52,166 nt of DNA from a virus. Its lineage: Duplodnaviria; Caudoviricetes. Location: positions 1 through 52,166 of IMG/VR virus record IMGVR_UViG_3300044274_000314. The stretch is one strand, 5' to 3'. This document shows, one piece after another, positions 15,702-41,911 of the stretch; the stretch's first letter is position 1; every line of letters begins with the position of its first letter. Under the pieces are notes generated by a model that worked only from the letters and a program-made list of their open reading frames with translations, had not been told where the DNA came from and did no database searches. The position numbers and the translations under genes were made by a program.

Positions 15702-18218
15702 CTATGGCGCGCCGTTGATGGCCACCATGATCGCCACGCCGGTGTTGTCGGCGGCAGGAAGCGTGCGCGTTCCTGTGGCGCCGGCAGAGGCGATCTCTTC
15801 GTCGTATGCGCCGTGCATGAGGCCGCCGAAGTTCAGCCAGCTTGCCCGCTGGGTCATGCCGCTCGGGGCACCGGTCGGGTAGCAGCTGGCCGCAAAGGCG
15901 ATGATCCGGCTGTTGTCGTTTGCGGTGGTGACGCCCGGGATCGTCTTGGACGTCCCGGAAGCAGCAGCACCAGCAATCGCCGCGGTCGGTGTGGATGTGT
16001 CCACGCTGTCGTATCGAAGCATGGCCGCAAACGGATAGTCCGCACCCGGAATCGTCCAGGTGTAGCTCGAGGGCTCGCTGGCGCCGGCGATCTTGTAGAA
16101 CACCTGCGCGTTGGTGCCGCCGGCAGAGTAGACCGACCCAAGCGCCGTCCATCCAGCAGGCGGCGTGAATGTGGACGACGCAAAGTCGCCAAACATAGCG
16201 ATCAGCAGGTCTCCTTCGACCGTGCCCGCGGGCTTGTTGATGCTCGTGGTGCCTTCCATCGTGGTGACGGACTGGAATACCGGCGTCGTTCTGCCGGCAG
16301 CGCCCGCTTCGACGTTGACGCCATTGCCCGCGTCCGCCACGCCGACCGCATCTGCTTCGACGTTGGCCGTCCGTGTCACCGTGCCGGCATCTACCACACT
16401 GTCCCCAGCCGCATTGACCGAGACGCCCCGCTTAACTGCTGCCCCGGCATCCGCAATCGTTGCGGCCAGCGCATCGACGCTCACGCCGCGAGAGACGCTG
16501 CCAGCGGTACCGATGCCTGTAGCATTGCCGTCGACCAGCACCGAGATGCTGACCGCGGATACTTCGGCCACGCCGGCTGCATCGGCAGAGACCGAAAGGC
16601 CGCGTTCGACGCCTGCGGATGCGTTAGCCGTCGCGGCTGCATCGGCAGAGATTGCAACTGTACGTTCGAGCGCAGCGGATGCGTCGGCGACCGCGGCAGC
16701 GTTAGCGGCGATATCGACCCCGATCTGAATGCCCGCACCACTATCGGCCGTCGCGGATGCGTAAGCTTCAACACCGACCGTCCTGGCGACTGCGCCAGCG
16801 TCAGCGATCGCGCCGACTTCGGCCTCAATACCGATCGAGCGTGTGACCGCACCAGCATCAGCGACGGCCCCTGCTTCAGCGTTGACGCGTGCCTCGCGCT
16901 GAGGCGCACCCACGGTACCGACGCCGATGACCTCCGCGTTGAACTCGCCTGCGATATCGGGGGTGCCAGCATCGGTGATGCCAGAAGCCGGGCTGTTGAT
17001 TTCGACGGCCACACCGATATCTGCGACCGCATCGCCGATCGATGCCGCCTCCGCGTCCACCGAAAGCGCCCGGGTCGGGGCTCCAGCATCGGCGACAGCA
17101 CCTGCGTCCGCGGTGACCAGAACGCCACCTTCCGGCGCACCAGCGTCTGCGATCGTCTCGACCTCAGCTGCAACGTGGATCTCAACGCGCGGCGAGCCGA
17201 CCTCGGCGACACCAGAGGCTTCTGCCGAGAACTCTCCGGCCACTTCTGGGGTGCCTGCGCTTGCCTCACCCGAGGCGGCTGCAGAAATCGACACAGTGCG
17301 GCGAGGTTCGCCCGTGGTGGCGGTTACAGAAATTTCGCTATCGATGCGCACCTGACGTTGCGGGGCGCCCACGGCTGCGACAGCGCCCGCAGTGTTGTCC
17401 ACCACGAGACGGAGCGTCGGTGCGCCAGCGGCAGCAACTGCGATCGCAGTGGCGGTGACCGGGACCGGACCGGAATTGTCACCGGTCAGGATCGGGCGAC
17501 CCTGGATCGTCCAGGAAGCGCGTGCCGGGTCCTGCCGGATGGCCTGAATGGAGTAGAGCTGCCCCCGGATGGTGATGCGGCTTTCGAGATCCGGAACGAT
17601 GGAGACGTCCTTCTGCAGGACGATGAGCTTCACATCCGTTTCCGGGATGTTGCCGCGCGCACGCTCGCGCGCAGTGTACTGTTCGACCATGCCCTTCGCG
17701 GAACTGGTCGACGTCGACTCCGACATGCCGCCTTCGCCATCCGCGGTCAGCGTGACTGAAGTGATCGTCGCGTCGAGGAGGAGCGGTGAAAAGACAGACC
17801 CGAAGACTTCCTTCAGGTCAGCGCCGAGGAGCCCGTAGAAGGCGATCGCAGTGGCGGTGTTCGGATAGACCGGGCGGCCTTGGATGGTCCACGAGGCCTG
17901 AGCGGGGTCCTGATCGATCGCGGCGACCGAGTAGACCTGCCCCGCGATGGTGATGGTGCTTTCGAGGTCAGGCGTGACGGTCACGCCCTCCTGAAGGATG
18001 ATCAGCTTGACGTCCGTCGCCGGGATGTCGCCATTCGCCTGCTCATAAGCCGAGTAATCCTCGACCATGCCCTTGGCGGCGGAGGTGGCCGGGGTCCCTT
18101 CGGTCCAGCCACCGTCCCCGGTTTTCGTCAGTGTCGGCTTCGAAATCTCAGCATCCAGAAGGAGCGGCGAGAAGACGGCACCGAAGACACCTGCAAGATC
18201 ACCATCCAAGAGCGCCAT
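15702..18218 (-). CDS. Tandem head-closure domains fused to an Ala/Val repeat stalk and a C-terminal beta-rich domain (838 aa)
   Basis: Occupies the head-closure slot after the adaptor; two ~118-aa copies ending DPAxASWTIQGRP, about 20 repeats of 19-20 aa, then a KPAGTVEGDLLIA...TPPAGWT domain. Confidence 0.8.
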   Translation of the reverse strand: MALLDGDLAGVFGAVFSPLLLDAEISKPTLTKTGDGGWTEGTPATSAAKGMVEDYSAYEQANGDIPATDVKLIILQEGVTVTPDLESTITIAGQVYSVAAIDQDPAQASWTIQGRPVYPNTATAIAFYGLLGADLKEVFGSVFSPLLLDATITSVTLTADGEGGMSESTSTSSAKGMVEQYTARERARGNIPETDVKLIVLQKDVSIVPDLESRITIRGQLYSIQAIRQDPARASWTIQGRPILTGDNSGPVPVTATAIAVAAAGAPTLRLVVDNTAGAVAAVGAPQRQVRIDSEISVTATTGEPRRTVSISAAASGEASAGTPEVAGEFSAEASGVAEVGSPRVEIHVAAEVETIADAGAPEGGVLVTADAGAVADAGAPTRALSVDAEAASIGDAVADIGVAVEINSPASGITDAGTPDIAGEFNAEVIGVGTVGAPQREARVNAEAGAVADAGAVTRSIGIEAEVGAIADAGAVARTVGVEAYASATADSGAGIQIGVDIAANAAAVADASAALERTVAISADAAATANASAGVERGLSVSADAAGVAEVSAVSISVLVDGNATGIGTAGSVSRGVSVDALAATIADAGAAVKRGVSVNAAGDSVVDAGTVTRTANVEADAVGVADAGNGVNVEAGAAGRTTPVFQSVTTMEGTTSINKPAGTVEGDLLIAMFGDFASSTFTPPAGWTALGSVYSAGGTNAQVFYKIAGASEPSSYTWTIPGADYPFAAMLRYDSVDTSTPTAAIAGAAASGTSKTIPGVTTANDNSRIIAFAASCYPTGAPSGMTQRASWLNFGGLMHGAYDEEIASAGATGTRTLPAADNTGVAIMVAINGAP
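16300..17450 (-). repeat. About 20 degenerate 19-20-aa coding repeats (consensus roughly A(V/I)ADAGAxxRxxxVxAxAx)
   Basis: Visible in the translation, e.g. AVADAGAPTRALSVDAEAA, AVADAGAVTRSIGIEAEVG, AIADAGAVARTVGVEAYAS; boundaries approximate. Confidence 0.8.
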
Positions 18219-20685: not shown

Positions 20686-21804
20686 TTACTTCTTCATGGC
20701 GACGCCGGCGGCGTCGAACACTTGGTTACCCCATGCATCACCGTCAGACGGCTTCGCGTCGGCCAGTGCTTTGGAGGCGGGATTGACCGGCTTGGCGTCA
20801 GCGGTCAGGTGGTCGAACAGGCCGTCGATGTAGTCGGCGGACTTGTCCTGCACCTTCTCGTCACCGAGCTTGTGCGCCACTGCCTGCTTCTTCAGCTCAG
20901 CATTGGAGACACCATCGGTGGCGAGGTCGGGTGCGATAGCCTTGACCTTGGCGACGATCGCAGAGCGGTCGGCAACCATCTGGTCGATCTTGGCGGCGTC
21001 GAACTGCTTCGACTTCAGATCCTCGATCTCAGCATCCTTCTTGCCGAGTTCGGAGTCCTTCGCAGCCAGAGCAGATGCGTGATCGGTTTCGGCCTTCTTC
21101 GCAGCGGCTGCTGCGTCGGCCAGCTGCGACTGCAGCTTGCTGATCACCTGGGCGCCCTGATCTGTAACCTCGATCGAGAGTCCGTCCACGGTGACCGTCT
21201 TCAGGGGTTTGTCGCCCATGGGATTTTCCTTCCGGTCTTTGGGGGAAACGGGGCTGGCGCCCCAGGTTTTCGCATCGTCGCCGATACGAGCTTTTGAACC
21301 CGCCCGCGCTCGGTCCACGACCGCGAGATGGTTGATTCTGATATTGCGCTGGATGGCGTCATACTCCTCGCCGTCAGCGGTGATGCCCGGTGTCCAGTCG
21401 AGGTCGCAGCCATAACCTGCGGAGAGTTCAGACGTGCCGTCCTCGACAGCCTTGATCGCTTTGGCGTCCTTCAGGATCAGCGGCAGGACGACCCATTCAC
21501 CGTCACGCTTGGCAGCAGTCGACACTTCGCCCACGGACAGGACCTTCCAGTTCTCGGCGGTGACCGCGTCTTCCGGGTGTTTCAGCGTCATGGGCGCGTG
21601 CGAGAAGCTCTGCAGGCTGTCCTGCGCGAAGACCTCCTCCTCCGGGCGGTAAACGCGCACCACGTCCATGTCTTTGACACCAAGCTCAGCGCCGGAATAG
21701 AGTTGGATTCCGGTCCGGACACTGCGTGCCTCGGCCACCAGGTAGCCGTCAGCGGTCTTGCGGGTGCCGGATACGGCCACCGCGTCGGTGAAGCGAATTG
21801 TCAT
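20686..21804 (-). CDS. DUF2213 prohead protease / scaffold protein
   Basis: TADGYL, RTGIQLY, VYRPEEEVF, ELSAGY, YDAIQRNIRINHLAVV..ARAG; GGAG RBS before MTIRFTD. Confidence 0.93.
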   Translation of the reverse strand: MTIRFTDAVAVSGTRKTADGYLVAEARSVRTGIQLYSGAELGVKDMDVVRVYRPEEEVFAQDSLQSFSHAPMTLKHPEDAVTAENWKVLSVGEVSTAAKRDGEWVVLPLILKDAKAIKAVEDGTSELSAGYGCDLDWTPGITADGEEYDAIQRNIRINHLAVVDRARAGSKARIGDDAKTWGASPVSPKDRKENPMGDKPLKTVTVDGLSIEVTDQGAQVISKLQSQLADAAAAAKKAETDHASALAAKDSELGKKDAEIEDLKSKQFDAAKIDQMVADRSAIVAKVKAIAPDLATDGVSNAELKKQAVAHKLGDEKVQDKSADYIDGLFDHLTADAKPVNPASKALADAKPSDGDAWGNQVFDAAGVAMKK

Positions 21805-21806
21805 GG

Positions 21807-22436
21807 TTATCTCCAGTTGGTCCGGACCCAGTCCAGATCCCGCACCGGTGGTTCGTGCATCTTTTCGGGGCCGTGGAAGTAGACGATGCGGGCGTCTCCA
21901 AGCCCGTCCGGCTTGACGTGGCCTTTGTAGGACAGGACCTGCCCGGGAAAGAGCGTGTCGATCACAGCCGGGTCCTGCCGCCTGATCCACTCCATGTCGT
22001 TCTCGCCCTGCCAGCGGTCGAAGACGTGGCTGTTTCCTGCAGGGACCAGCGCAACCCCGTTGCAGACCTGTTCGGGCTTGTATGGATCAAGAGGTACCGC
22101 GATCCGGTGTTCGGTCAGGCAGTACTCTGCGAGGTGGTCGATGTTCCCGGTGATGACCGTGTCGAGGCCGACCAGGATCATCGGGCGACCGAGCCGGTAT
22201 GGCTCGATGCAGTCCGCATAAGACGGCACGTGGTTGGTCAGGGGCTCCTGTGCGATCGGCTCCTCATAGTCCCGGTGGCGGTCGGTGAAACAGATGAACT
22301 CGAAAGGGTGTGTCAGGTGGCGTGCGAAGCCGCGGTAGAGCTTCTCCACCCACGTCTGATCGTACATGGACGAGAAGGATTTGGAGTGGCGGTTGGCCTC
22401 CCAGAACAGCGTGCAGACGACCAGATCAGCGGGCAT
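21807..22436 (-). CDS. GT-A fold glycosyltransferase-like protein
   Basis: Y...WVEKLY....RHL..PFEFICFTD, GLDTVITGNID (DxD position reads GLD), IVYFHG..K.H. Confidence 0.72.
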   Translation of the reverse strand: MPADLVVCTLFWEANRHSKSFSSMYDQTWVEKLYRGFARHLTHPFEFICFTDRHRDYEEPIAQEPLTNHVPSYADCIEPYRLGRPMILVGLDTVITGNIDHLAEYCLTEHRIAVPLDPYKPEQVCNGVALVPAGNSHVFDRWQGENDMEWIRRQDPAVIDTLFPGQVLSYKGHVKPDGLGDARIVYFHGPEKMHEPPVRDLDWVRTNWR

Positions 22437-22965
22437 GGCGGGTACGCCTGCCGATCAGTACCGCCTCGATGTCCTTGAGCGACCGGTCCGGCTTGAGAGC
22501 CTCGCCATCCACCCAGAGCGAGCCGGATGGCACATCCTTCCTGACTACAGAGCCTGCTGCGACCATCGAACCTGCGCCGATCCGGACACCGGGGAGAACG
22601 ACCGAATTTGAGCCGATGCTGGCGCCGTCCTCCATGATGATCGCGGGGCGCCCCTCGTACTCCGAGACGTCAAACCCTCGCTCATGCGCTCGTGGCCAGG
22701 CGTCGTTGCAGAAGGTGCAGTTTGGCCCGATGAAGCAGTCCGACCCAATCAGGAAGCCCGGACCTGCGGCGAAGTTGTGTGCGATCTTGGTCCGGTCGCC
22801 GACGGTCGACCCGTCGATGCACGCCCCGGAGGCGATGTTGCAGTCCTCGCCGATCACGGCTCCCCGGATGATCGATGCGAATTGCCAGATCCGCGTCCGT
22901 GCTCCGACCGTCGCGCCTTCTACGTGAGCCTTGGGGTGAATGAATGCGTCGGGGTGGATGCTCAT
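22426..22965 (-). CDS. Hexapeptide-repeat (left-handed beta-helix) sugar acetyltransferase, WbpD/FdtC-like
   Basis: IHPDAFIHPKAHV, TRIWQF, IGEDCNI, FIGPNCTFCND.WPR, GASIGSNSVVLPGVRIG. Confidence 0.9.
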   Translation of the reverse strand: MSIHPDAFIHPKAHVEGATVGARTRIWQFASIIRGAVIGEDCNIASGACIDGSTVGDRTKIAHNFAAGPGFLIGSDCFIGPNCTFCNDAWPRAHERGFDVSEYEGRPAIIMEDGASIGSNSVVLPGVRIGAGSMVAAGSVVRKDVPSGSLWVDGEALKPDRSLKDIEAVLIGRRTRHAR

Positions 22966-23327
22966 GCCAGCACCTTCTCAGGCAGCCGCTCGAACGCCCA
23001 CTCGAAGACCATACCTTTTGCTGGGTCGTCGTCCCGGTAGGTGGTGAGGGTCGCGTCGTACTTGGGGACAATGCCATCAGCCGGGACGATGTCGAACTTG
23101 GGGCTGAACGCCTGCACCAGGAAGACCGGCACCTTGCCGAACTGGATGTTGTTGCCCTGCCCCATCGCGCGGGTTTCGACAGACAGATGGATGCCAACGA
23201 TGCGGACTTCGCGCCCGAGAGTACCAAGAAGCCGGAGCAGTTCCTCAGTGTCGGCCGGCGCAACGATCGGCACTAAGCCGGCACGATTCTCTTCGAGGCC
23301 GATATCGGTCGGGGTGATCTGGGTCAT
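22962..23327 (-). CDS. Hypothetical protein, 121 aa
   Basis: ATGA-coupled on both sides within the cassette. Confidence 0.65.
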   Translation of the reverse strand: MTQITPTDIGLEENRAGLVPIVAPADTEELLRLLGTLGREVRIVGIHLSVETRAMGQGNNIQFGKVPVFLVQAFSPKFDIVPADGIVPKYDATLTTYRDDDPAKGMVFEWAFERLPEKVLA

Positions 23328-23941
23328 CGGTCTATGTCCTCCAACCAAGGAAAGCATGTCAGCGCCGAATCCGGCGTGGCGTTGAGGACCTCGACTTCGC
23401 CCGCCAGCCTTTTGGCCATGCGCTCGATCGAGGGGATGAAGGTTTGGTCGTAAGACTGGTCCGGTGTCGGGATTCGGTGGTCGCCGTGATAGTGCCCGGG
23501 CCGCATGTCGAAGCCGTGCAGAATGATCCGCGAGGCCCCGAGCAGGTAGGCAAGGTTGATTGCCATTTCTCCGCCCGTAGCGCCCGTCAGCGCGCGGATG
23601 GACGGATCGTCCGATAGGGTGTTGCCCTTGTCGTGCTCGACCGCCACCAGCGGCCACGGGAGCTCCCAGGAAGGGACCTGCCCTTGGCGGCCGAAACGGA
23701 AGCGGCTGCGGTTGAGGTGGAGGCGCTCCCGGTTCCAGTCGAACCAGCGCCTGTCCATGACCAGCAGAATGTCTGCGTCCGGAAAGAAATCGAGGCCTGA
23801 ATTGTTGACCGCGATCACCGGGTCGAGGTCGAGGATGCTGATGTCCATGTGGCGAAGACTGGGCCCACCGCCGAGGATATGGACTGTCTCGCCTGCGAAA
23901 GCCGCGCTGTCAGTGACGTCCCATTGCACGAGCCGGGTCAT
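23324..23941 (-). CDS. Maf/DUF115/CstII-like nucleotide-sugar transferase-like protein
   Basis: HILGGGPSL, VIAVNN, D..W, G..AINLAYLLGASRIILHGFDM, VLNAT motifs. Confidence 0.75.
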   Translation of the reverse strand: MTRLVQWDVTDSAAFAGETVHILGGGPSLRHMDISILDLDPVIAVNNSGLDFFPDADILLVMDRRWFDWNRERLHLNRSRFRFGRQGQVPSWELPWPLVAVEHDKGNTLSDDPSIRALTGATGGEMAINLAYLLGASRIILHGFDMRPGHYHGDHRIPTPDQSYDQTFIPSIERMAKRLAGEVEVLNATPDSALTCFPWLEDIDR

Positions 23942-24207
23942 TTCCGCTCGTCCACAGCAGCGTGATAGGCAGTGTGCGCCTTCCGGGCCATGCGGCGCCA
24001 TTTGGCCACCGTGGTCATGGGCGATGTCTTCCCGGCCGCTGCGCCCTCCATCAGGGTCGCCCACTTCGTCGGCCGCTTGTTGCGGTAGTGCTCGACGTAG
24101 AGTGCCTCCGCCATCCGGTCGATGATCTCGCCCATGGAGAGGCTGGATTCGGCCTCTTGGTTGGCCATGAGCGTGGCAATGCGTTCCTGCAGGGAGGGAT
24201 CAGTCAT
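23938..24207 (-). CDS. Hypothetical protein, 89 aa
   Basis: Overlap-coupled to both neighbours. Confidence 0.6.
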   Translation of the reverse strand: MTDPSLQERIATLMANQEAESSLSMGEIIDRMAEALYVEHYRNKRPTKWATLMEGAAAGKTSPMTTVAKWRRMARKAHTAYHAAVDERK

Positions 24208-24709: not shown

Positions 24710-25510
24710 TCATTCCTCCACGTCGATGATTGGCAGCTGGATACAGCCGCAGAATGGCTTCAGCCCAGGCGTGTCGCCTCTGGGATAGCCGAGCGCATAC
24801 TTCTTGCCGTTCCGGGCCTTGTGCTCCGGCCGGTAATGGACCTTCCCTGAGTGTCGCCACTCGTACTGTGTGAGCCCCGCTTCGTTCATGCGGATCTCGG
24901 TGAGTTTGCCCGACAGCTTCTGGGCCTGGTCGATGGCGATGCGGTTGGCGCGCCGGCGCTGGATGCCCAGCCGTTCGGCGATCTCCTTCCCCATCTCCTT
25001 GCGGGGTGTCTGTTCGGTCAGACCGCGCCAGACGGTTTCCTCAATGTCCTTACGGGCGGTGGCGTTGATGTCCCGGATCAGGCTGGAGATGCGCTGCTGG
25101 AACGCCTTCACCTTCGGCAGGCTGGCGGCCTGATTGATGAACGGGAACACGTCGACGCCCGTCCCGGCACGGACTGCCTCAGCCCAGCGCTGGTCGTGCC
25201 AGTTGATCGCCCTTCGCATCCACGCCTCGATCTCGACGTCGACCTGGACGGTGCGGCCCTCGATCAGTGCCTCCGCAATCCGGATGACTTCCCGAAGATC
25301 GTCGGTTTCATCATCGCGGGTGAGCGTTGAGACTGCCTGCCCATAGGCCGGGAGAATGCGGTCGCTGATCTCCTGCTGCCAGGCCCTGACCGGCTGGACC
25401 GTCACCGCGAAGAGCGAGCGCTTCAGCGCGTTCGTGATCTCGATCGGTCGCAGGGTCGTATCCCGGCGGACACCTGCCTGCCGGGCTACGAGACGAAGGT
25501 CATAGGCCAT
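24710..25510 (-). CDS. Minor head morphogenesis protein (SPP1 gp7 / Mu gpF family)
   Basis: RA..IA.DQ..KL, Y.WRHSG....RPEH.ARNGK, PG....CGC; follows the portal. Confidence 0.92.
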   Translation of the reverse strand: MAYDLRLVARQAGVRRDTTLRPIEITNALKRSLFAVTVQPVRAWQQEISDRILPAYGQAVSTLTRDDETDDLREVIRIAEALIEGRTVQVDVEIEAWMRRAINWHDQRWAEAVRAGTGVDVFPFINQAASLPKVKAFQQRISSLIRDINATARKDIEETVWRGLTEQTPRKEMGKEIAERLGIQRRRANRIAIDQAQKLSGKLTEIRMNEAGLTQYEWRHSGKVHYRPEHKARNGKKYALGYPRGDTPGLKPFCGCIQLPIIDVEE

Positions 25511-27429
25511 CAGCTTACGAGGCCATCCTTCTGCAGCTTCTTAGCCCAGTCCTCGACCACCTCTTCGAACATTTCCGGGCCGAGCTCGATCTTGCCGCTG
25601 AACGGCTTGACCGCGGAGAGGTCGATCTTCTCAGCGCCCTCATAGGTGATGGTGATGTGCGGCTGGAAGTCGTCCCACTCCCAATCAGCTCCGGTGCTGC
25701 GCTTGATGTCCTCATGCCGCCAGACGAGGTCGTTGGAGGCGAAGTGGAGAACGACCGCGCCTTTCGGACCGAGCGGCTCGACCACACGCGGTCCACCGGC
25801 AGGGATCGTGAGCTTCCCTTCCTTGTCACTGTACCAGGTAGAGCCGGCCTTCATCCAGTCGACAGGCGTGCGGGAGAACGCGATCGTGACGTGCATGTCC
25901 GAGGCCTTCAGCGTCTCGCCGAAGCCGTTACGCTTGGCCCATGCGACCAGCGCCTTGCCGTTCAGGACCTTGCGGTAGACGTAGAGCGTGCGCGGGGCGG
26001 CATCCTTCACCGGCTTGCCGGTCTTCGGATCGACGTCCTCGTCCTCTTCGTCGTCCTCCTCCGGATCCGCGTTCGGGTCGTTCGGATTGTCAGGATCGCC
26101 CGGCAGCTGGTTGGCCGGATCGTCATCCGCATCCGGGTCGAAGGACTCGGTCGTGGACTGGAATTCCTCCAGCGCGTTCTCGATGCCCGGGAACTGGCCG
26201 GACTCGATCAGCGCCGTCTCCAGCACCTTGGCCAGGACACCGTCGTTCAGCAGCCCCATGTTCGCGTAGTTCTTGAACGTCTCCGAGCGCGACTTCTCGA
26301 TCTCGGCATGCTCCTTCTCGCTCGTCTGGTAGAGCGGCCCCCACGTGTAGTGGATGGCCTCGTCCCGTGATCCGAGTTCGGAGCGAATGAACACCTCGTC
26401 CAGACGGGAGAGGCGCGGCGTCAGCGTCAGGCGCTGCTCGGCACCGATGCGGTCATAGTAGTTCTTCAGGTCGCTGTCGCCCGTGGCGTTGAGGCCACCG
26501 GGGGACTGGCCGAGGAAACGGGTGGCCGGAATATCGACTGCACCTGAGACGATCAGCAGATACTGCTGCATGATCTCCGGCAGCTTCTCGAAGCCGACCT
26601 GCTTCTGTTCGTACTCCTCCTCCTTGTCGAGGACGAGCGCGTTGACCGACGACTTCAGCGACATAGCAGTCGCAAGGCGGGTGCGCAGGCGCTCTGTCGA
26701 ATCTGCGGTGGCCAGATGCACGCTCATCAGCTGCGGGATCTTCAGGACGTCGAGCTTCGACTCCATCAGCATCTGGGCCACAGCCTGACCGGAGAGGGCC
26801 GCGTTGCCCATGGCATCCCGGACCCGGGCGAGCACGCTATCACCCCACGGATCGACCGCAGTGATGCGCTGCGGCTTCCGATTACCAGTGAAGGTGATGA
26901 TCCGCGACGGGTGGATGATCAGGGACACGCCGGTCTCGGTGGCCAGCGTGTAATCGACCGGCTCGCCGAACCACTCGTCCTCCGGGTTCTTGCGGAGCTC
27001 GTTGGTGCTGAGGTCATAGCGGGTCAGGACGTGGACGTACTTGAGGTCGCCCTGCTTCACCCGCTCGGGGTTCAGCGGCGTGGACGGATCATCAGTGCCC
27101 ACGCCCAAGAACAACGCTGCGCCGCCGTAGAGCCGGCCGTAGATCATGGCCTCGAGGATCTTCTCCTTCAGGCCGAGCCGCTTCTCTCCGGCCTCAAGCA
27201 GTTCAATCTGCTCTGCGGACGCTTGCCAGTTCCGCCACTCACGGACGCTGTCGAAAGCGGGGATGTCGACTGCTTTGCCAGCCATCCAGTCGCCGCGGTA
27301 CATGGCCTCCAGCTCTGAGGGGTCCACCTCGTTGAAATAGAACTCGTTGGCCGCGACCTTGTCGCGCTCGCTCATGAGCCCGCTGGCGAGGTTGCGCAGC
27401 GTGTCGGTGACGAAAGTGAATGCACCCAT
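25510..27429 (-). CDS. Portal protein (DUF1073 type) fused to a C-terminal 2H-phosphoesterase (Acb1-like) domain
   Basis: Portal motifs Y..DW.A.K.VDIPA.D..REWR, IHPSR, GA.DIPATRFLGQSP.GLNATGDSD..NYYD; acidic linker; C-terminal ~160 aa with HVT and HIT. Confidence 0.92.
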   Translation of the reverse strand: MGAFTFVTDTLRNLASGLMSERDKVAANEFYFNEVDPSELEAMYRGDWMAGKAVDIPAFDSVREWRNWQASAEQIELLEAGEKRLGLKEKILEAMIYGRLYGGAALFLGVGTDDPSTPLNPERVKQGDLKYVHVLTRYDLSTNELRKNPEDEWFGEPVDYTLATETGVSLIIHPSRIITFTGNRKPQRITAVDPWGDSVLARVRDAMGNAALSGQAVAQMLMESKLDVLKIPQLMSVHLATADSTERLRTRLATAMSLKSSVNALVLDKEEEYEQKQVGFEKLPEIMQQYLLIVSGAVDIPATRFLGQSPGGLNATGDSDLKNYYDRIGAEQRLTLTPRLSRLDEVFIRSELGSRDEAIHYTWGPLYQTSEKEHAEIEKSRSETFKNYANMGLLNDGVLAKVLETALIESGQFPGIENALEEFQSTTESFDPDADDDPANQLPGDPDNPNDPNADPEEDDEEDEDVDPKTGKPVKDAAPRTLYVYRKVLNGKALVAWAKRNGFGETLKASDMHVTIAFSRTPVDWMKAGSTWYSDKEGKLTIPAGGPRVVEPLGPKGAVVLHFASNDLVWRHEDIKRSTGADWEWDDFQPHITITYEGAEKIDLSAVKPFSGKIELGPEMFEEVVEDWAKKLQKDGLVS

Positions 27430-28925
27430 CAGACATTGTCCAGATTGTAGGAGGAGCCGTTGACCAGCTCGTTGAAGGCCCGCGACGTGGCGTCGACCTG
27501 GTCCTTGAAGGTGCCGGAGGGAAAGCTCTCCAGCTCTGAGAGGTATTCCTCATTCCATGGCCCTGCCACGATGAGGACGTTGCCGACCTGCGCCTGTGCA
27601 GCGAACGGTTCGGCACGCGTTTCCTTGTCACCGGTCTCGGTCGATGCCGTGTAGCTGTAACCTGCGAGCTGGCGGATCAGATACTGGACCTGCGCCTTAC
27701 CTGCCTGCCCCGGGTCCTGCGGAATCGAGCCCCGGACCCCGTATCCGTCCTGGGAGGCCGTGTTCTTCAGGAGCGTTTCGACTTCCGCAGCGGTGCCCTG
27801 TTTGCGGCGCACGTCGGCGATGACGTACCGGCCATCAGGCATCCGCCCCATCTTCACGCCCGCAGTGTACGCGGCCCGTGTCGAACGTGTGGCCGCGAAG
27901 TCCCAGCCCCGGACCCAGATGCAGCCCGTAGGCACAGCCGGGATGATCTCAAACCAGTCCCGCTTGAACATGCCGCCGCCCCGAGGGAACGGGCGCTGCT
28001 GGTACTGGCCAGCCCAGCTGTACTCGCCGGCCTTCTTCAGCTTGTCGATCGCAGTGCGAGGGAATCGCACCGGGTCCATCAGCTCCCCATCGGTCTCCCG
28101 CGGGTCGGTCCAGCCGATCGGCGTGGTCACCCGGCGTTCGGGCTCGAACTCCATCGGGATACAGAGGTGGGTGAACCCAAGGTCCCGGGCCAGCAGCGTG
28201 CCGGTCAGGTCGGTTTCATGCAGCCGCTGCATCACGATCACGATTGCGGAGGTCTCCGCATCGTTGGTTCGGTTGAGGCCGCCCTCGAGGAATTCCCGGC
28301 AGGCTCGTGAGCGCTCTGCTTCCGATTCCGCGCCCCTAATCGAGTGCGGATCATCGACCACCAGGCGGTCACCCCGCTTACCGGTGACGGCTGCAAAGGT
28401 CACGCCCTCACGGGTACCGGTGTCGGCGTTCTCGAACGAGAGCTCCGCAGTCCGGGTCAGCGACACTTCCGGCCAGAGCGTCTGGTACCAGTCCGAGAGG
28501 ATCAGGTTCCGGGTCTTCCGCGTGTCACGCTTGACGTTGCCCTCTTCGAAGGAGGTGGACACGAACTTGTTATGGCGGAGCCCACATGGCCCCCACTCCC
28601 ACGACTGCCAGAGAACTGACACGATCGTGGACTTGGACGAGCCGGGCGGCACGTTGATGATCAGCCACGGGGACATGCGGCCAAAGGTGATAGCCTCCAG
28701 GTGGTCGCACATGGCCTGCATGTGCCAGTTCCACTTGAGCGTGGTTCCTGGCTCGATGATGGGCCACGCTTCCTTCACGTACCCAGCAAACGACTTGCAG
28801 CGCCTGCGGATGGCGTCCGCGTCCTGTCTGGCTGCCTCCAGTTTCCGGCGCTCGATCTCCCGCTGGTAGGCCTCGATGCTGAGCGGGAGCGTCGGCGCGC
28901 TATCCTTCAGCGCTGTTGCTGTCAT
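27429..28925 (-). CDS. terL: Terminase large subunit
   Basis: INVPPGSSKS (Walker A), VVDDPH (Walker B), MQRLHE.DL, YQQRP, RGWDFA, DQVDA nuclease. Confidence 0.96.
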   Translation of the reverse strand: MTATALKDSAPTLPLSIEAYQREIERRKLEAARQDADAIRRRCKSFAGYVKEAWPIIEPGTTLKWNWHMQAMCDHLEAITFGRMSPWLIINVPPGSSKSTIVSVLWQSWEWGPCGLRHNKFVSTSFEEGNVKRDTRKTRNLILSDWYQTLWPEVSLTRTAELSFENADTGTREGVTFAAVTGKRGDRLVVDDPHSIRGAESEAERSRACREFLEGGLNRTNDAETSAIVIVMQRLHETDLTGTLLARDLGFTHLCIPMEFEPERRVTTPIGWTDPRETDGELMDPVRFPRTAIDKLKKAGEYSWAGQYQQRPFPRGGGMFKRDWFEIIPAVPTGCIWVRGWDFAATRSTRAAYTAGVKMGRMPDGRYVIADVRRKQGTAAEVETLLKNTASQDGYGVRGSIPQDPGQAGKAQVQYLIRQLAGYSYTASTETGDKETRAEPFAAQAQVGNVLIVAGPWNEEYLSELESFPSGTFKDQVDATSRAFNELVNGSSYNLDNV

Positions 28926-29361
28926 CGGAAGACTGGCCGGTGATGGCCTGGCAGAGCGCGCCGTACTGCTCCAGCTGCTCGTCGGTCAGGCTGGACAGGT
29001 CGATGGTCTCGATCGGGCCACCGTTCCTGCCGGTGTGCTCGTTGGCGGTGCGATCCTTCTGGTCGAGCATCTGCTTGCCGAGCCAGATTTGCATGGCCAC
29101 GTTGCCGTTCTGAGCGTTCTTCCACTGCATGCGGCGGAGGGAAGCCTTGCCGGCATCGGAGTGCATTTTAAAGAACTCCGCAAAACCAGCGTACCCTTCC
29201 TCCTTCAGGCGGCGGTCAATTGTGTCCACCGAGCACTCGAAAACGGATGCGCACTCCTCTGCGGTGCACTGGATCGCACACATCGCTTCGAGTTGTTTCA
29301 GGTCGATTTCCTTGCGTGGGCGCCCGCCGACGTCGACTTCGGGTTCCTGCTGATCAGACAT
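28900..29361 (-). CDS. terS: Terminase small subunit
   Basis: GRPRKEID, N-terminal HTH, GKASLRR.QW..A..GN..M.IWLGKQ.L.Q.D; upstream of terL. Confidence 0.88.
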   Translation of the reverse strand: MSDQQEPEVDVGGRPRKEIDLKQLEAMCAIQCTAEECASVFECSVDTIDRRLKEEGYAGFAEFFKMHSDAGKASLRRMQWKNAQNGNVAMQIWLGKQMLDQKDRTANEHTGRNGGPIETIDLSSLTDEQLEQYGALCQAITGQSSDDSNSAEG

Positions 29362-30607
29362 CGGCCAACTCCTTCGCAGGGACGCGCTCTGCCTTCAGGC
29401 CGGTGAAGTCCTCCCAGCGTTTGACGATCACGTCGCAATAGGCGGGGTTCAGCTCCAGGCCACGGCAGTGGCGGCCTTCCATCTCGCAGGCGATGAGGGT
29501 GGTGCCGGAGCCGAGGAACGGATCGTAGACCGCCTGCCCGGCTTTCGAGTTGTTGAGGATTGGGCGGCGCATGCATTCGATCGGCTTCTGGGTGCCGTGG
29601 ATGGTCTTGCCATCATCGACATTGCCCTGAGTGCGGTGCATGTTCTGGATTTCCCAGAGCGTGGATTGCTTCCGGTCTCCGGCCCAATGCGCCTTGCCTC
29701 CGTTGCGCACCGCGTACCAGCACGGTTCATGCTGCCAGTGATAGTTTCCGCGCCCCATGACGAGGCTGTTCTTCGCCCAGATGATCTGGGACCGGACCTG
29801 ATAACCAGAGGCGACAAGCGAGTCCGCGACCGTGGCTGCATGCAGAGCACCGTGCCAGACGTAAGCGACGTCGCCGGGGAAGAGCTCCCACGCCTCGCGC
29901 CAGTCAGCGCGGTCATCGTTCAGGACCTTTCCTTCGGCGCGTTTCTGATGAGCCTTGTTCACGCCAGCTTCCAGACGCCACTTCGGATCATACTTCACGC
30001 CATAGGGAGGATCGGTGACCATCAGGTGCGGAACCGCACCTCCCAGCGCTTTTGCAACCGCATCCGCATCAGTGGAGTCGCCGCAGCAGAGCCGGTGGTT
30101 TCCGAGGATCCAGACGTCGCCCTCCTGGGTCGCCGGGTCAGCAGGAGCTTCCGGGATATCGTCGGGGTCGGTCTTTCCCTCGGTACCGGCCGAGAGGATG
30201 GACAGCACGTCCACCGGGTCAAAGCCTGTGAGGCCGATATCGAAATCTGTGTCCCCGAGCTCTGCGAGTTCGAGGCGGAGGATATCCTTGTCCCACCCAG
30301 CGTTCAGAGCGAGCTGATTGTCCGCGAGGATGTAGGCGCGCTTCTGCTCATGCGACCAGCCGGTGGCGATGATCACCGGGACCTCATCGAGTCCCATTTT
30401 TTGCGCGGCCTGGAGGCGGCCGTGACCTGCGAGGACGCTGTTCTCTTCGTCTACGAGGATGGCGTTTGTCCACCCCCACTCCTCGATAGAGCGGATGATC
30501 TGCTGAACCTGCGCATCCGAGTGGGTGCGTGCGTTCTTCGGATCAGGCTTCAGGTCGGAGACGGCACGGCGCTCAACGCGGTCGGCCGGCCATTGCTGGT
30601 CGGTCAT
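29354..30607 (-). CDS. ParB-like N-terminal domain fused to an N6/N4 DNA methyltransferase
   Basis: NARTHS..Q, AGHGRL, ADNQLA (ParB); TDPPY, HGTQKP, DPFLGSGTT (MTase). Confidence 0.93.
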   Translation of the reverse strand: MTDQQWPADRVERRAVSDLKPDPKNARTHSDAQVQQIIRSIEEWGWTNAILVDEENSVLAGHGRLQAAQKMGLDEVPVIIATGWSHEQKRAYILADNQLALNAGWDKDILRLELAELGDTDFDIGLTGFDPVDVLSILSAGTEGKTDPDDIPEAPADPATQEGDVWILGNHRLCCGDSTDADAVAKALGGAVPHLMVTDPPYGVKYDPKWRLEAGVNKAHQKRAEGKVLNDDRADWREAWELFPGDVAYVWHGALHAATVADSLVASGYQVRSQIIWAKNSLVMGRGNYHWQHEPCWYAVRNGGKAHWAGDRKQSTLWEIQNMHRTQGNVDDGKTIHGTQKPIECMRRPILNNSKAGQAVYDPFLGSGTTLIACEMEGRHCRGLELNPAYCDVIVKRWEDFTGLKAERVPAKELADV

Positions 30608-32044: not shown

Positions 32045-32729
32045 TGGTGACCTCCTCCGGCGGTTCAAATAAGTCTGATGTGGCGTAGTCGGGGACGAGC
32101 TCTGCAGCCTGGAGACGGAGTATCCGGGCCTCGAGCTCTTTGGCTTCGGCCTGAAGACGCAGGACATCTGCTCGGGCTTTCACCCGGTCCCGTAGAATCT
32201 CGGCGACCGCACGCCCTAGCTGGGTCTTCATTTCGATGTGGCGGAGCCACTGGCGTTCCTGCCATGCGCGGCCGATCGGCATGTTCGGTGCGCGCCAGAG
32301 CGCGACCTTCATCAGGAACCAGTCCGGCACTTCGGCTTTGCGGACCTGCGCACGCTTCCGCCGTTTGAAGTTGCCGTCCTCGAGGACCAGCCAGCCAGCC
32401 TCTGCAGGGATCTCGTCCTTGCTGCAGATGTCCGGCGTCGTCACGAAGTCGAATCGTGTGCAGTACGGCAGGTACTTGCGCCACTTTTCGCTCCGGAGCT
32501 CGCCGACGAAATCCTCCCGGCGGGCCTTCACCTCGAAGATTCGAGGGTCGGTCAGCTTGTTGCGTCGGGTGTCGACCGCATAGGCATCGGGCCTGCATTT
32601 GTAGAGCTCAATCTCGGCCCACGCAGCCGTGCTGGGCTGGCCGCACAACCAGGTCAGCAGCGTCTGCTGCAGGTGGTCGTGCCCGTTCGGGCGTCGCCAC
32701 GCATCCGGATCATAGGCGCCGGGCTTCAC
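32037..32729 (-). CDS. MmcB-like PD-(D/E)XK endonuclease
   Basis: RPD...IFEVK.RREDF..E....KW..YL.YC.RF.F...EIP.EAG. Confidence 0.8.
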   Translation of the reverse strand: MKPGAYDPDAWRRPNGHDHLQQTLLTWLCGQPSTAAWAEIELYKCRPDAYAVDTRRNKLTDPRIFEVKARREDFVGELRSEKWRKYLPYCTRFDFVTTPDICSKDEIPAEAGWLVLEDGNFKRRKRAQVRKAEVPDWFLMKVALWRAPNMPIGRAWQERQWLRHIEMKTQLGRAVAEILRDRVKARADVLRLQAEAKELEARILRLQAAELVPDYATSDLFEPPEEVTNG

Positions 32730-33274
32730 GAGCGGGTGTGCCTCGCGGTCACCGCCGACCGGCGGATCATGTATTCCGGCGTCTGGTTGGCCGATCGCTG
32801 CTGGTGCTCGGCGCAGTAGCTGGCAGTCGCGTCGGAGACGACGCGGCCGCAGAACAGGTGCGCCTCATTGCCCTGCGCGTCGTTAACCGGCCAGCGACAC
32901 TCATTTCGTGCCAGTTCTATGATCTCCACACGCCGCATCGGCTCTGCCTTCCTGGGGGCACGCTTCGCTTTCGGGAGCTTCGGTTCCTCACGCTTTGCCG
33001 TTTGTGGCGCGACAGGCGGCGACACAGGCGGTTTCGGGGCCGGAGGCGGCTTCGGCGCCATCTTCTTCCTGATCTGCACAGGGCGCGAAGGAATCGCGCG
33101 GCTGTCGAGTTGCAGGCGGTGGCGCCGGCCGATCACGGAATTGCGGCTGCGGCCGTTGCCGAACCGTGCGTTCAAGAGCCGGGCGATCGTGGTGGCCGAG
33201 TGGCCCTGCGCCCATTCCTGCCGGAGCATCGCGTCCTCGGCCGGCGCCCATGCTATACCTCTTCCGCTGCTCAT
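32726..33274 (-). CDS. gcrA: GcrA-family transcriptional regulator
   Basis: W......L...WAQGHSA..IA......SRNSVIG..HRL; C-terminal L....CRWPV.D.......FCG.......YC.EH. Confidence 0.9.
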   Translation of the reverse strand: MSSGRGIAWAPAEDAMLRQEWAQGHSATTIARLLNARFGNGRSRNSVIGRRHRLQLDSRAIPSRPVQIRKKMAPKPPPAPKPPVSPPVAPQTAKREEPKLPKAKRAPRKAEPMRRVEIIELARNECRWPVNDAQGNEAHLFCGRVVSDATASYCAEHQQRSANQTPEYMIRRSAVTARHTRS

Positions 33275-33624
33275 GCGCTGATCACCTCCGGTGTGGATTG
33301 TTTCTGGAAAAGGCCGACCAGGGTCTGCATGCCCTCGGAGGTATCCAGCCGCTGCAGGCGGCGGAACCAGTTGGCCGGCCATAGATCGATCGTGGTGGAG
33401 GGCGACCAGGTGTCGATGCACCAGGCCTCGAAGTCCGTGTTTTCGACGCCGATGCTGATCAGATCCACCTTGGCCACGAGGCCGGTGCAGATCGGACCGT
33501 TCGCCGGGTATGACTTCAGCACCGTGAAGATCTGATTCCGGCACAGCGGAAACTTCGTGCTCGCAAACGGTACGCCCGGCCAGTCGTCCAGGACGCTCGC
33601 GACTTTCTCACCGACCTCGAACAT
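33271..33624 (-). CDS. Hypothetical protein, 117 aa
   Basis: Coupled by overlaps on both sides. Confidence 0.65.
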   Translation of the reverse strand: MFEVGEKVASVLDDWPGVPFASTKFPLCRNQIFTVLKSYPANGPICTGLVAKVDLISIGVENTDFEAWCIDTWSPSTTIDLWPANWFRRLQRLDTSEGMQTLVGLFQKQSTPEVISA

Positions 33625-34580: not shown

Positions 34581-36100
34581 ACGAGTTGCTCCTCCAATTG
34601 TTCGAGTTCTGATTTGCTGGTGACGAGGCAGTCGGTGCCGGCATCGTAGTGCGCGACGATCCGGCCGACCTGGCCGTGACGGTTCTTCGCTGCGTTGAGC
34701 TCGATCTTGCCTTTGGCGTCGGAGATGTCCGACCACCACTGCATCCACTTCTTTTCCGTCTCGCTGCCACTGGCGCCATGCGGCGGCTCGGATTTGGCGA
34801 GGTAGTATTCGTCGCGGTAGCAGAAGATGACGATATCGGCGTCCTGCTCGATCGACCCGGAGCCCCGGAGGTCAGCCAGCTGGGGACGTTTGTTTTCCCG
34901 CATTTCGCACTGGCGGCTGAGCTGGGAGAGCAGAATGATCGGGACGTTCAGGTCCTTGGCCAGCTGCTTTAGCGCTGAAGTCGTTCGCCCGAGCGCAGCC
35001 GCTTCGCTCTCTCCCGGCCGGAACATGAGGTTCATGATCTGCAGGTAGTCGATGACGATGAGGTCCAGGCGGCCAGCAGAGCGCTTCAGCGCCCGCGCAC
35101 GTGCCGCGATATCGCCGACGCTGAGTGCGCCCGTGTCATCGCAATACAGCGTGTCAGGGATGGCGTTGCGGCCTTCACGCAGGATCGCCAGCTGGTTGAT
35201 GCCGAGAGATCCGTTGCCGGCGTCCTGGTATTCGACCCGCCCTGCCCCGGTCTTGTGTGCGAGCGAGGAGATCAGGCGGATATCGTAGTCGGACTTCTCC
35301 ATCTCGAGCGAGAAGAAGCCGACCACATTGTTTCCGTCGCCATGGTCTGCCCGATCGGCAGCGACCGAGGCCGCTATGTTGGAGGCGACCCCCGACTTGC
35401 CCATACCCGGGCGGCCGGCGAGGACGATAAGGCGCCCCGGCACCAGGCCGCCGATCCTCTTGTCGAGTTCAGGCAGGCCGCTACGGAGCCCTCGGACCTG
35501 CCCGGGTTTCCCGTTCTGGACGATGTCCTCCATCTGCGCGTAGACGCGCACGGAGGATTCTGAAGCGGCCTCCCACTTCGAGCCGCGCAGGTGCATGTCC
35601 TCGATCGCCTGAAGGCTGTCACGCGCCTCCTCGAGCCATTCGGAAGGGTTGGTGCCCTCTTTCGGGTGACGTCCGCTGTCCTGCATGAGCTGGCCGGTAC
35701 TGATCAGCATGCGGCGAGCAGCCGAGTTCCGGACCATCACACAGTAGTCGGTGAGCTCAGCGCCAAAGGCCGCGGACTCAAGCAGGTCGATCAGGTAGTT
35801 TGCACCACCGATGTCCCGGACCTCCGGAGTCTGCTCAGCCCATTCGTGCATGATCACACCATCAGCGGTGAAGCCCGCTTCAATCAGGATCATTGCCCGA
35901 TGGAAAATCTTCTGGTGCGCGACCGCATAGAAGTCGTCCGCGCGAACAATCTCCCGGATCCGGTCGAGGTCCTGATTGTTGAACAGGATCGCACCAAGGA
36001 TCGCGGCCTCTGCGGAGAGGTTGTGCGGCTGCTTATCCGCCTCACCTTCCCGCTTCTGGCCGAAGCCGTGCACCCGGGCCATGTCGCTACCGTCAGCCAT
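34577..36100 (-). CDS. dnaB: Replicative DNA helicase, DnaB family
   Basis: PHNLSAE.AILG, LAGRPGMGKS, FFSLEM, VIDYLQ, LSQLSR, DLRGSGSIEQDAD, KNRHG. Confidence 0.96.
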   Translation of the reverse strand: MADGSDMARVHGFGQKREGEADKQPHNLSAEAAILGAILFNNQDLDRIREIVRADDFYAVAHQKIFHRAMILIEAGFTADGVIMHEWAEQTPEVRDIGGANYLIDLLESAAFGAELTDYCVMVRNSAARRMLISTGQLMQDSGRHPKEGTNPSEWLEEARDSLQAIEDMHLRGSKWEAASESSVRVYAQMEDIVQNGKPGQVRGLRSGLPELDKRIGGLVPGRLIVLAGRPGMGKSGVASNIAASVAADRADHGDGNNVVGFFSLEMEKSDYDIRLISSLAHKTGAGRVEYQDAGNGSLGINQLAILREGRNAIPDTLYCDDTGALSVGDIAARARALKRSAGRLDLIVIDYLQIMNLMFRPGESEAAALGRTTSALKQLAKDLNVPIILLSQLSRQCEMRENKRPQLADLRGSGSIEQDADIVIFCYRDEYYLAKSEPPHGASGSETEKKWMQWWSDISDAKGKIELNAAKNRHGQVGRIVAHYDAGTDCLVTSKSELEQLEEQLV

Positions 36101-36884
36101 TACAACCTCCATGAGCGCTCTGAGGAACCGTCACGGCCACATCGCCGCCCCCATCGAATTCCAGTTCGTCAAACTTGGTGGCCTCGTTGCCCCATGTGTC
36201 CCACCCGGGGCGGCTCTGGCGGCTGAAGAGTTCCAGGCGGCGCACGCCCGGCACCAGCGCTTCAGCGGCCGCAAAGGCCTCGTCCGGCTTGCGGGAATGC
36301 TCCCGGGCTTCGGCCATGATCACGGAGCGGACGTTCTTGGCCGTTTCAGGATTGCCGTTCGTGGCGATCAGAAACGGCTCATTGGCGCTTCTAAGGCGGT
36401 ATCCGGTGCCGAAATGCAGCTTCCCGGTGCGGGTGGTCTTCACCCACGTGCCGGCAGTCACGTACCGGAATCCCCACGCTTTGATGACCTCAATCGCTTG
36501 CGGGAGCATCGGGTTGGTTGCCCAGAGCCACAGAAGGCAGTCGCCCGCAGCGAGCTCGCCGACCGGCAGCGCCTTGATGTCCTCAAGCGGCATGCAGTCG
36601 TATTTTGCACTGGCGTTTTTATGCGCACCCTTGTCGGACCAGTTCTCAAACGACCATGGCGGGTCCGCCATGATCAGCCCGTAGGAGAAGGGCTGCAGCT
36701 TCGCGAAAACAGGTTCCGGATTACCGTCCTTAGCCGCCATATGAACAGGATCGACGGAAGTGGCGGCTTCCTCCCCTGCCCCCGGCGCGGGATTGACCTC
36801 CGAGGAGGCAGGACAGTCTTGTTTACCCAGTCCGTCCGGAACGGCATTGGGGGAGTAGGCCGGGGCTTGTTCGAAATCAGTCAT
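36093..36884 (-). CDS. MT-A70 family adenine methyltransferase
   Basis: ADPPW, Y.CM....IKALPV..LA..DC.LWLWAT, WGF.Y, REHSRKP, ELFSR..RPGW..WGNE; start uncertain. Confidence 0.93.
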   Translation of the reverse strand: MTDFEQAPAYSPNAVPDGLGKQDCPASSEVNPAPGAGEEAATSVDPVHMAAKDGNPEPVFAKLQPFSYGLIMADPPWSFENWSDKGAHKNASAKYDCMPLEDIKALPVGELAAGDCLLWLWATNPMLPQAIEVIKAWGFRYVTAGTWVKTTRTGKLHFGTGYRLRSANEPFLIATNGNPETAKNVRSVIMAEAREHSRKPDEAFAAAEALVPGVRRLELFSRQSRPGWDTWGNEATKFDELEFDGGGDVAVTVPQSAHGGCNG

Positions 36885-37203
36885 GGAGCACACGCTCGTT
36901 CGCCTCCAGGAGTTCATATGCGCGCTCAATCTCGCAGGCCGCATCGACCATGCAGAGCGCTGCTTCCTTCAGCGCAGGGTGTCCCTTCTCCATCAGGCGG
37001 CTGGCCTGGGAGCGCATCTGCACCGCCAGCTTCCGCATCTGCTCTGGATACCGGTGCGGCTCGACATTCCGCATGACACCATCCGCATGCAGTGTTTGCG
37101 TCACCTGCGAGGGGTGGCATGGCACCCGGCGGGCGATCTCCATGTTGGTGCATCCCTCCGCGTGCAGCTCGCGGATTCGTGCGGCTTTAGATCCATGCTT
37201 CAC
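36877..37203 (-). CDS. Small HTH-containing hypothetical protein
   Basis: RIRELHAEG.T..EIARR......V; GTG start overlaps the upstream stop. Confidence 0.6.
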   Translation of the reverse strand: MKHGSKAARIRELHAEGCTNMEIARRVPCHPSQVTQTLHADGVMRNVEPHRYPEQMRKLAVQMRSQASRLMEKGHPALKEAALCMVDAACEIERAYELLEANERVLHD

Positions 37204-41570: not shown

Positions 41571-41911
41571 GCGGCTTCGTCATCGACTTTCACGCCGAGC
41601 GCAACGCCCGCATCGAAGAGGCGAACCTCGCCAACGCGCGCCGCCAGCTCGAAGCGGCTGCGGGCATGGCTGTCACCCACCTGATCGCAGGCCTGCCCGG
41701 CGCCGCCGAGGCTCAAGCCATCATGGACAAAGCATTCGCAGAGAGACTGCCGGAGGAGCTGACTGAAGAGTCGATCCTCCGGCAGATGGAGAACAACAAC
41801 GCAGGGACAGCTCACGGAGAGCAGCCGATTCCTAATCGGAAGGCGGGCGATGCATCGTTCGGGTTCGACTCCCCCTCCCTGCTCCAATCACATGAGGAGT
41901 CCGAAGGATGA
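41567..41911 (+). CDS. Hypothetical protein
   Basis: GGAGG RBS, ATGA overlap. Confidence 0.65.
   Translation: MSGFVIDFHAERNARIEEANLANARRQLEAAAGMAVTHLIAGLPGAAEAQAIMDKAFAERLPEELTEESILRQMENNNAGTAHGEQPIPNRKAGDASFGFDSPSLLQSHEESEG

Follow-up and report, generated by a model that had tools for sequence, protein, structure and literature searches.

The best-described relatives of the enzyme analyzed here are the Acb1 proteins of phage T4 (gene 57B) and Erwinia phage FBB1 (structures 7T26 and 7T27), whose biochemistry has been reported together with their role against CBASS, the antiphage system that signals by cyclic oligonucleotides (PMC9117128). Acb1 is characterized by cleavage of 3'3'-cGAMP and cAAA that needs no metal and by rescue from CBASS in vivo. 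The catalytic tetrad of Acb1 comprises H44, T46, H113, and T115; Y12, W74, F107, and W147 stack on the bases, E141 reads the adenine, and residues 145-152 form a lid (PMC9117128). We analyzed a 52,166-nucleotide stretch of DNA from a tailed virus (IMG/VR record IMGVR_UViG_3300044274_000314; hereafter the window), in which a 2H domain of the same Pfam family, PF23474, forms the C-terminal part of a predicted portal protein. The likeness to Acb1 extends to the 2H fold and the tetrad made by two HxT motifs and, in the alignment, to an N-terminal Tyr, a Glu pair, and a lid Trp. The difference lies in context and distance: the characterized proteins are free-standing, about 150 residues long, and come from T4-like lytic phages, whereas the domain in the window is attached to a portal in a temperate phage, is ~25-32% identical to them, and is known from its sequence and a structural model.

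Two other described groups bear on this gene. Enzymes of the LigT or 2'-5' RNA ligase type (PF02834), represented by E. coli LigT (5LDI), share the superfamily fold and the HxT chemistry, but the domain scores below the Pfam cut-off for that family and its structural match to LigT is weaker than that to Acb1. Packaged effectors and MuF-linked cargo, such as T4 Alt and SPP1 gp7-type proteins, resemble it in that the head module encodes an accessory enzyme joined to a protein of the capsid interior. T4 Alt is packaged and ejected as a protein; in contrast, portal-tethered Acb1 is known here from genes. The class to which the window's fusion belongs was described by Iyer, Burroughs, Anantharaman, and Aravind in 2022 (PMC9503650), who report in section 3.4.5 that 2H domains are fused to MuF or portal proteins and propose that these domains are packaged and injected against SMODS/CBASS, cyclic-mononucleotide, and CRISPR signaling. 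The idea of packaging and injection is therefore already published, as a comparative-genomics statement without experiments; the same paper describes fusions of MuF with ADP-ribosyltransferases. Our literature searches found no experimental paper on portal-fused Acb1. Portals are not mentioned in the main text of the Acb1 discovery paper (PMC9117128), in which nine additional Acb1 proteins were tested, or in a 2025 preprint on divergent viral 2H phosphodiesterases.

The fusion gene occupies positions 25510-27429 on the minus strand and encodes 639 residues in a single frame without a stop until the stop codon at 25512-25510. Its portal body matches PF06381 (Phage_portal_3) over residues 39-386 (26272-27315, minus strand) with 331.6 bits against a cut-off of 33.8 (E 5.9e-99) and the TIGR01555 portal profile with 267.1 bits against 196.25, and the fold continues to about residue 425; this is a portal of the DUF1073/TIGR01555 type. 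When the full-length AlphaFold model was searched with Foldseek, the best match was the portal of cyanophage Pam3 (8hds_A, E 1.3e-30, 39% identity), followed by many other solved portals. The gene also stands where a portal gene is expected, between the large terminase and the genes for head morphogenesis, protease, and capsid. The portal profile phrog_146 spans residues 6-630 (E 3.9e-132) and includes both the portal and the Acb1 domain.

Residues 426-475 (26005-26154, minus strand) form an acidic, proline-rich linker, with 20 Asp or Glu, 3 Lys or Arg, and 9 Pro in 50 residues. In the full-length model, residues 426-467 have predicted local distance difference test (pLDDT) scores under 50, and the portal body and C-terminal domain on either side are folded with confidence. 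Linker length ranges from 16 to 84 residues (median 33.5) across 74 aligned family members, in 69 of which the net charge is negative; this fits a flexible tether. The Acb1-family domain follows at residues 476-639 (25513-26004, minus strand), with its Pfam match at residues 480-631 (25537-25992). The arrangement set out in an earlier note made from the sequence alone, a portal body, an Asp/Glu/Pro-rich linker, and a 2H domain in one frame, is thus borne out by the reading frame, by Pfam, and by the position of the linker. We also considered an internal translation start that would yield a free Acb1 domain and rejected it: the only in-frame candidate, a GTG at V474, lacks a properly spaced Shine-Dalgarno-like sequence, and the GAGGAG-like strings in the linker are merely acidic codons.

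The identity of the C-terminal domain is well supported. It matches Acb1 (PF23474) with 129.4 bits against a cut-off of 27 (E 1.1e-37), covering profile positions 1-144 of 144, far beyond what chance would give. The full-length protein scores only 19.4 bits against a cut-off of 23.3 for LigT_PEase (PF02834) and 13.8 against 27 for 2_5_RNA_ligase2 (PF13563), and with the domain alone these rise to 22.7 and 17.6 bits, still under the cut-offs. Structural comparison agrees. A model of the domain alone, built with a 77-sequence alignment (pLDDT 89.6), was searched with Foldseek against the Protein Data Bank (PDB), and the first two ranks were the apo structure of FBB1 Acb1 (7T26; E 4e-8, template modeling (TM) scores 0.61/0.72) and its complex with cyclic GMP-AMP (cGAMP) (7T27; E 5e-7, TM 0.61/0.71). 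A phosphodiesterase of Burkholderia phage BCSR5 came third (9Q2Y/9Q2G; E 5e-6 to 3e-5, TM 0.61-0.63), and E. coli LigT (5LDI and related entries) appeared at rank 5 (E 2e-5 and weaker, TM ~0.55). The earlier note had called the domain Acb1-like and had named a closer structural match to LigT as the outcome that would speak against this; with Acb1 ahead of LigT in both profile score and structural ranking, the assignment stands.

The residues needed for catalysis are in place. The first HxT motif, H513-V-T515, is encoded at 25893-25885 and the second, H591-I-T593, at 25659-25651 (both minus strand), exactly where they had been placed in the earlier note, and each aligns with the corresponding HxT motif of Acb1 in 7t26. 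Among 74 full-length homologues, H513 is kept in 73 and T515 and H591 in all; at position 593, 66 have Thr and the other 8 have Ser. Beyond the tetrad, the phmmer alignment to 7t26 brings into register the Glu pair (E622/E623), the N-terminal Tyr (Y483), and the lid Trp (W628), and Y483, E623, and W628 are invariant in all 74 homologues. Of the four stacking aromatics of Acb1, counterparts were assigned here to the N-terminal Tyr and the lid Trp, with a numbering relative to 7t26 that may be off by one. This conservation of catalytic and pocket residues argues, at the level of sequence, that the domain is under selection as an enzyme.

Related portals that do without the domain show how the fusion is built. 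A scan of genome contigs with single-sequence patterns returned only three related loci; two of these, from Ensifer (L002, 460 residues) and Panacagrimonas (L003, 445 residues), encode portal homologues that are 44-46% identical to the window's portal and have no Acb1 domain. The existence of such close homologues shows the Acb1 domain to be an add-on rather than a part of portal function. Both proteins end in an acidic, proline-rich tail; the tail is thus native to this type of portal, and the enzyme was appended to it. Directly after both portal genes (L002 2977-4359; L003 2998-4335) comes the DUF2213 gene, and no MuF gene intervenes. Because L002 and L003 lack both the MuF gene and the Acb1 domain, the two are variable parts of the head module.

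In contrast to these, the Pam3 portal carries the domain: a sequence search of the PDB aligns it to residues 469-621 of the 621-residue chain in 8HDS (E 1.2e-27). Pam3 gp3 is likewise a PF06381-type portal with a C-terminal 2H domain, and its portal body is 39% identical to that in the window, but Pam3 is a myophage whereas the provirus here is of siphovirus type. Only 442 of the 621 residues were modeled in 8HDS, and the Acb1-type domain is invisible in this, the only solved virion with such a portal; in the Pam3 virion the domain is therefore either flexible or gone. 8HDS is absent from the matches listed (ranks 1-49) in the domain-only Foldseek search. The Pam3 structure paper orders the parts of the portal from inside to outside as barrel, crown, wing, stem, and finally clip, with a channel 24-64 Å wide, an order that agrees with the earlier note in placing the C-terminal end of the portal toward the capsid interior.

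The fusion in the window is real but ordinary: fusions of this kind are frequent, stand in existing catalogues, and have been treated in the literature. Searching with residues 470-639 gave at least 930 clusters at E ≤1e-3 from 1,383 candidates of 351-1,119 residues, and 117 of the 120 best listed clusters have the PF06381 plus PF23474 architecture. For several listed matches, in Hyphomonas, Henriciella, and Brevundimonas, the NCBI name is "anti-CBASS protein Acb1 family protein" or "phage portal protein." Together with the phrog_146 profile, which includes the domain, these clusters confirm the earlier note's guess that portal-Acb1 fusions already stand in family databases; the gene here is unexceptional within a large family that already carries annotation. 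An exhaustive search with HMMER, covering 1.84 billion representatives, yielded 1,778 matches at E ≤1e-3, of which 1,351 reach ≤1e-10 and 385 reach ≤1e-30. In cultured phages, 141 records match the domain. It is found under a portal annotation in Synechococcus phage Ssp-JY39, Pseudomonas phage PSA-2T, the Rhizobium RHEph and RHph phages, and Aminobacter phage Erebus, and in T4-like phages it occurs in free 57B genes.

To describe the partners of this clade, we took the nearest 150 of the 1,778 matches as 50%-identity representatives and scanned them with Pfam at E ≤1e-6. Portal fusions account for 119 of them and involve three portal families: PF06381 (113), PF04860 (4), and Portal_Mu (2; P0252 and P0283). 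The domain is also joined to DUF2213 (4, one of them with Nudix as well), to the prohead proteases S78 and S78_2 (2), and to ChaB (3). No partner family was recognized in the remaining 22 (181-629 residues), many of which are likely fragments and some of which may hide unrecognized partners. Among these 150, terminase, capsid, and tail Pfam families are never the partner, and of the partners reported in PMC9503650 we saw portals but none of the MuF proteins, alongside proteases. A set of 106 shorter matching proteins divides into 80 with Acb1 alone, 16 portal fragments, 9 fusions to XkdF-type proteases, and 1 fusion to S78; those with Acb1 alone include proteins of ~160 residues on long contigs (P0135, P0159, P0164, P0209). 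In a FastTree tree of 151 Acb1 domains the partner labels need 12 changes, and the strongly supported branches force at least two origins of the Portal_Mu fusion and at least three changes involving PF06381; with 15 of 148 inner branches well supported, the tree is suggestive, but not firm, evidence that Acb1 domains have swapped fusion partners.

In 13 of the 119 portal fusions there is an additional domain after or before Acb1: an ADP-ribosyltransferase in six, a zeta toxin in three, PBECR3 in two, and a histidine phosphatase and a pyridine-nucleotide oxidoreductase in one each. Several of these portal-Acb1-effector proteins (P0232, P0238, P0281, P0332, P0362) share a short recurrent motif downstream of the Acb1 domain and before the next one, approximately Pro/Arg ... 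Gly-Gly-(Gln/Lys)-(Phe/Trp), which might serve as a linker or as a site of recognition or processing.

We consider it likely, at a probability of roughly 0.75, that the gene encodes a late-made enzyme against cyclic oligonucleotides that is built into the capsid interior in 12 copies. On this account the Acb1-family phosphodiesterase would sit on the C-terminal, capsid-interior end of the portal, held by a flexible acidic tether of ~50 residues, and would, like the T4 and FBB1 enzymes, hydrolyze immune signals that are 3'-5' cyclic di- and trinucleotides with adenosine in them. Its targets would be CBASS signals and possibly also the cyclic triadenylate (cA3) of type III CRISPR systems. Twelve copies would be present inside every head because the enzyme is covalently part of the portal. 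Virion-assembly proteins have been reported as a late trigger of CBASS, and prohead proteases in particular reportedly trigger it by cleaving CD-NTases, the nucleotidyltransferases of the system (PMC12991175). An enzyme made late, when such proteins appear, would protect the producing cell, and the timing supposed in the earlier note, with the enzyme made alongside structural proteins that could set off CBASS, fits these reports. Strikingly, this Acb1 clade is joined to prohead proteases, the reported trigger, as well as to portals.

Several points weigh against this reading. The identity of the domain to validated Acb1 proteins is low, at the ~25-32% given above; published biochemistry for the portal-borne clade was not found in the searchable literature; and the 2025 preprint reports that some structural groups of viral 2H phosphodiesterases were inactive on all messengers tested. 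Late co-expression alone would not need a fusion. The record, which comprises the provirus alone and not its host, has no CD-NTase match, and the one genome in which a fused homologue was found (G001) has no SMODS match, although a sample of one says little. A borderline SMODS match does occur in a genome with a domain-less portal (G002), but three genomes with related portals are too few to carry meaning.

What happens to the domain after assembly is a separate question, and here our confidence is lower. That the prohead protease releases the domain and that it is then ejected or carried over into the next cell is a part of the reading above that we hold only tentatively. Stated as the selected function of the fusion, the proposal, which is the main idea of the earlier note, is that the protease cuts the linker within the head and that the domain (18 kDa), once freed, is ejected together with the DNA and destroys cyclic nucleotides in the next host before phage genes are expressed. 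We rate this below even odds, and the evidence is divided. In its favor, one Acb1 clade is repeatedly fused to proteins of the procapsid interior (portals of three families, DUF2213, and S78/S78_2 proteases), the additional effector-type domains carried by 13 of the 119 portal fusions make more sense if they are injected, and the proposal is in print (PMC9503650). A protease gene is also at hand in the same module: the DUF2213 protein (20686-21990, minus strand; PF09979, E 8e-55), which PHROGs labels a head maturation protease (phrog_530, E 3.8e-106), is a candidate enzyme for any release of the Acb1 domain. Phage Mu provides a precedent, in that its portal lacks the final 124 residues in the virion structure, an absence attributed to protease I (PMC11915804), and fusions of Acb1 to Portal_Mu do exist (P0252 and P0283). 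On the other side, no evidence points to cleavage of portals of this family, and a domain still joined to the portal cannot exit the head, so delivery needs cleavage. The channel of the Pam3 portal is only 24-64 Å wide, so that passage through it would probably require the 2H domain to lose its fold. If CBASS fires late, 12 early copies would add little to newly made enzyme, and the unmodeled domain in the Pam3 virion is compatible with either flexibility or loss. We considered the invariant stretch D476-A-x-P479-R (DAAPRTLYV) at the start of the domain as a cut site specific to fusions and rejected it; it also occurs in the stand-alone proteins P0135, P0159, and P0164 and in the N-terminal forms P0274 and P0360, and is therefore part of the fold. 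Comparison of the boundary between linker and domain revealed no cleavage motif.

A broader version of the delivery proposal, which we find somewhat more doubtful, is that the disordered C-terminal tails of portals and the N-termini of prohead proteases serve as a general device for loading cargo, with the protease freeing the cargo for ejection into the next host. The cargo would be Acb1 and, in relatives, ADP-ribosyltransferases, zeta-type kinases, PBECR3 nucleases, and Nudix enzymes. Were this true, anti-CBASS and host-takeover activities would be provided without any transcription, and much of the Acb1 in nature, perhaps most of it, would be portal-borne, with free genes like that of T4 in the minority. 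Even the narrower event, release and ejection of tethered Acb1, would mean that many temperate phages carry ready-made counter-defense enzymes in the virion; it would alter the picture of when CBASS is evaded and would make the portal C-terminus a natural site for engineered cargo. Two further explanations concern the domain itself. It is improbable that it is an RNA-end or other 2H phosphoesterase (LigT, 2',3'-cyclic phosphodiesterase, or 2'-5' type) acting on RNA repair intermediates or on another messenger instead of CBASS signals. The LigT_PEase and 2_5_RNA_ligase2 matches have E values of 1e-3 to 1e-4, PHROG 755, labeled "RNA ligase," matches residues 491-631, LigT structures are significant in Foldseek (E 2e-5), and, according to the 2025 preprint, substrate range varies among viral 2H groups. 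But both Pfam scores lie under their cut-offs against 129 bits for Acb1, Acb1 structures lead the structural ranking, and the Tyr, Glu, and lid Trp that align with the cGAMP pocket of Acb1 are invariant in the family. The "RNA ligase" label on T4 57B-type genes is an old annotation of Acb1, and none of the open reading frames scanned in the window matches an RNA ligase or polynucleotide kinase family. Least credible of all is that the domain is catalytically irrelevant, either a decayed appendage kept at the portal crown for structure or assembly, or an artefact of annotation or assembly that joins two genes. Nothing specific speaks for this beyond the invisibility of the domain in the only solved virion that bears one, and it is at odds with a catalytic tetrad kept in 73-74 of 74 homologues, with the same single-frame architecture in the 117 clusters counted above and in isolated phages, with close portal homologues that manage without the domain, and with a linker that contains no stop codon and no convincing internal start.

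The late enzyme in the head that we favor is encoded within a compact set of genes. The large terminase gene (27429-28925, minus strand; PF17289, phrog_38) ends in a stop codon that overlaps the portal start codon by one base, and the ATG of the downstream MuF/SPP1 gp7-like head morphogenesis gene (24710-25510, minus strand; PF04233, E 4e-10; phrog_324) overlaps the portal TGA by one base (TGATG). With these one-base overlaps the three genes are tightly packed in a single late operon, and they are probably translated as a unit. The late module, on the minus strand, begins with the small terminase, the large terminase, the portal-Acb1 gene, the MuF-like gene, and a 168-residue open reading frame without an assigned family. 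It continues with three sugar-transferase- or acetyltransferase-like genes, the DUF2213 protein, a decoration protein, the major capsid protein, neck and tail genes, the tape measure protein, and an endolysin.

The window as a whole, a complete provirus record, is a temperate siphovirus-type provirus, with an integrase at its right end and genes for a CI-like repressor, RecT, a PD-(D/E)XK nuclease, and DnaB. Its host is probably an alphaproteobacterium. Among its other products are a GcrA-like regulator of the cell cycle (PF07750) and an MT-A70 methyltransferase (32726-33544 and 36093-36944, both minus strand), as well as a ParB-methyltransferase at 29354-30607; this combination suggests a host among the alphaproteobacteria and interference, by methylation, with host control or restriction. 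The provirus also contains a gene for tRNA-Arg (CCT) at 41801-41886 (plus strand), between the repressor region and the recombination genes.

Two other features of the structural region deserve mention. The three sugar-modification-type genes at 21807-24064 (minus strand), between MuF and the prohead protease, encode a glycosyltransferase (phrog_1962), a hexapeptide-repeat acyltransferase (PF00132), and a sialyltransferase/MptE-like protein (phrog_4603), and the trio could be a moron for modification of surface or virion glycans. An 838-residue open reading frame at 15702-18218 (minus strand; P0366) has no Pfam or NCBIfam match. By eye, it appears to contain two tandem head-closure domains (Hc1, phrog_161) at about residues 1-118 and 119-238, followed by ~400 residues of imperfect Ala/Gly/Val-rich repeats and a C-terminal region of ~170 residues; it would be a neck or adaptor fusion of unusual size, possibly a fiber of the head or neck.

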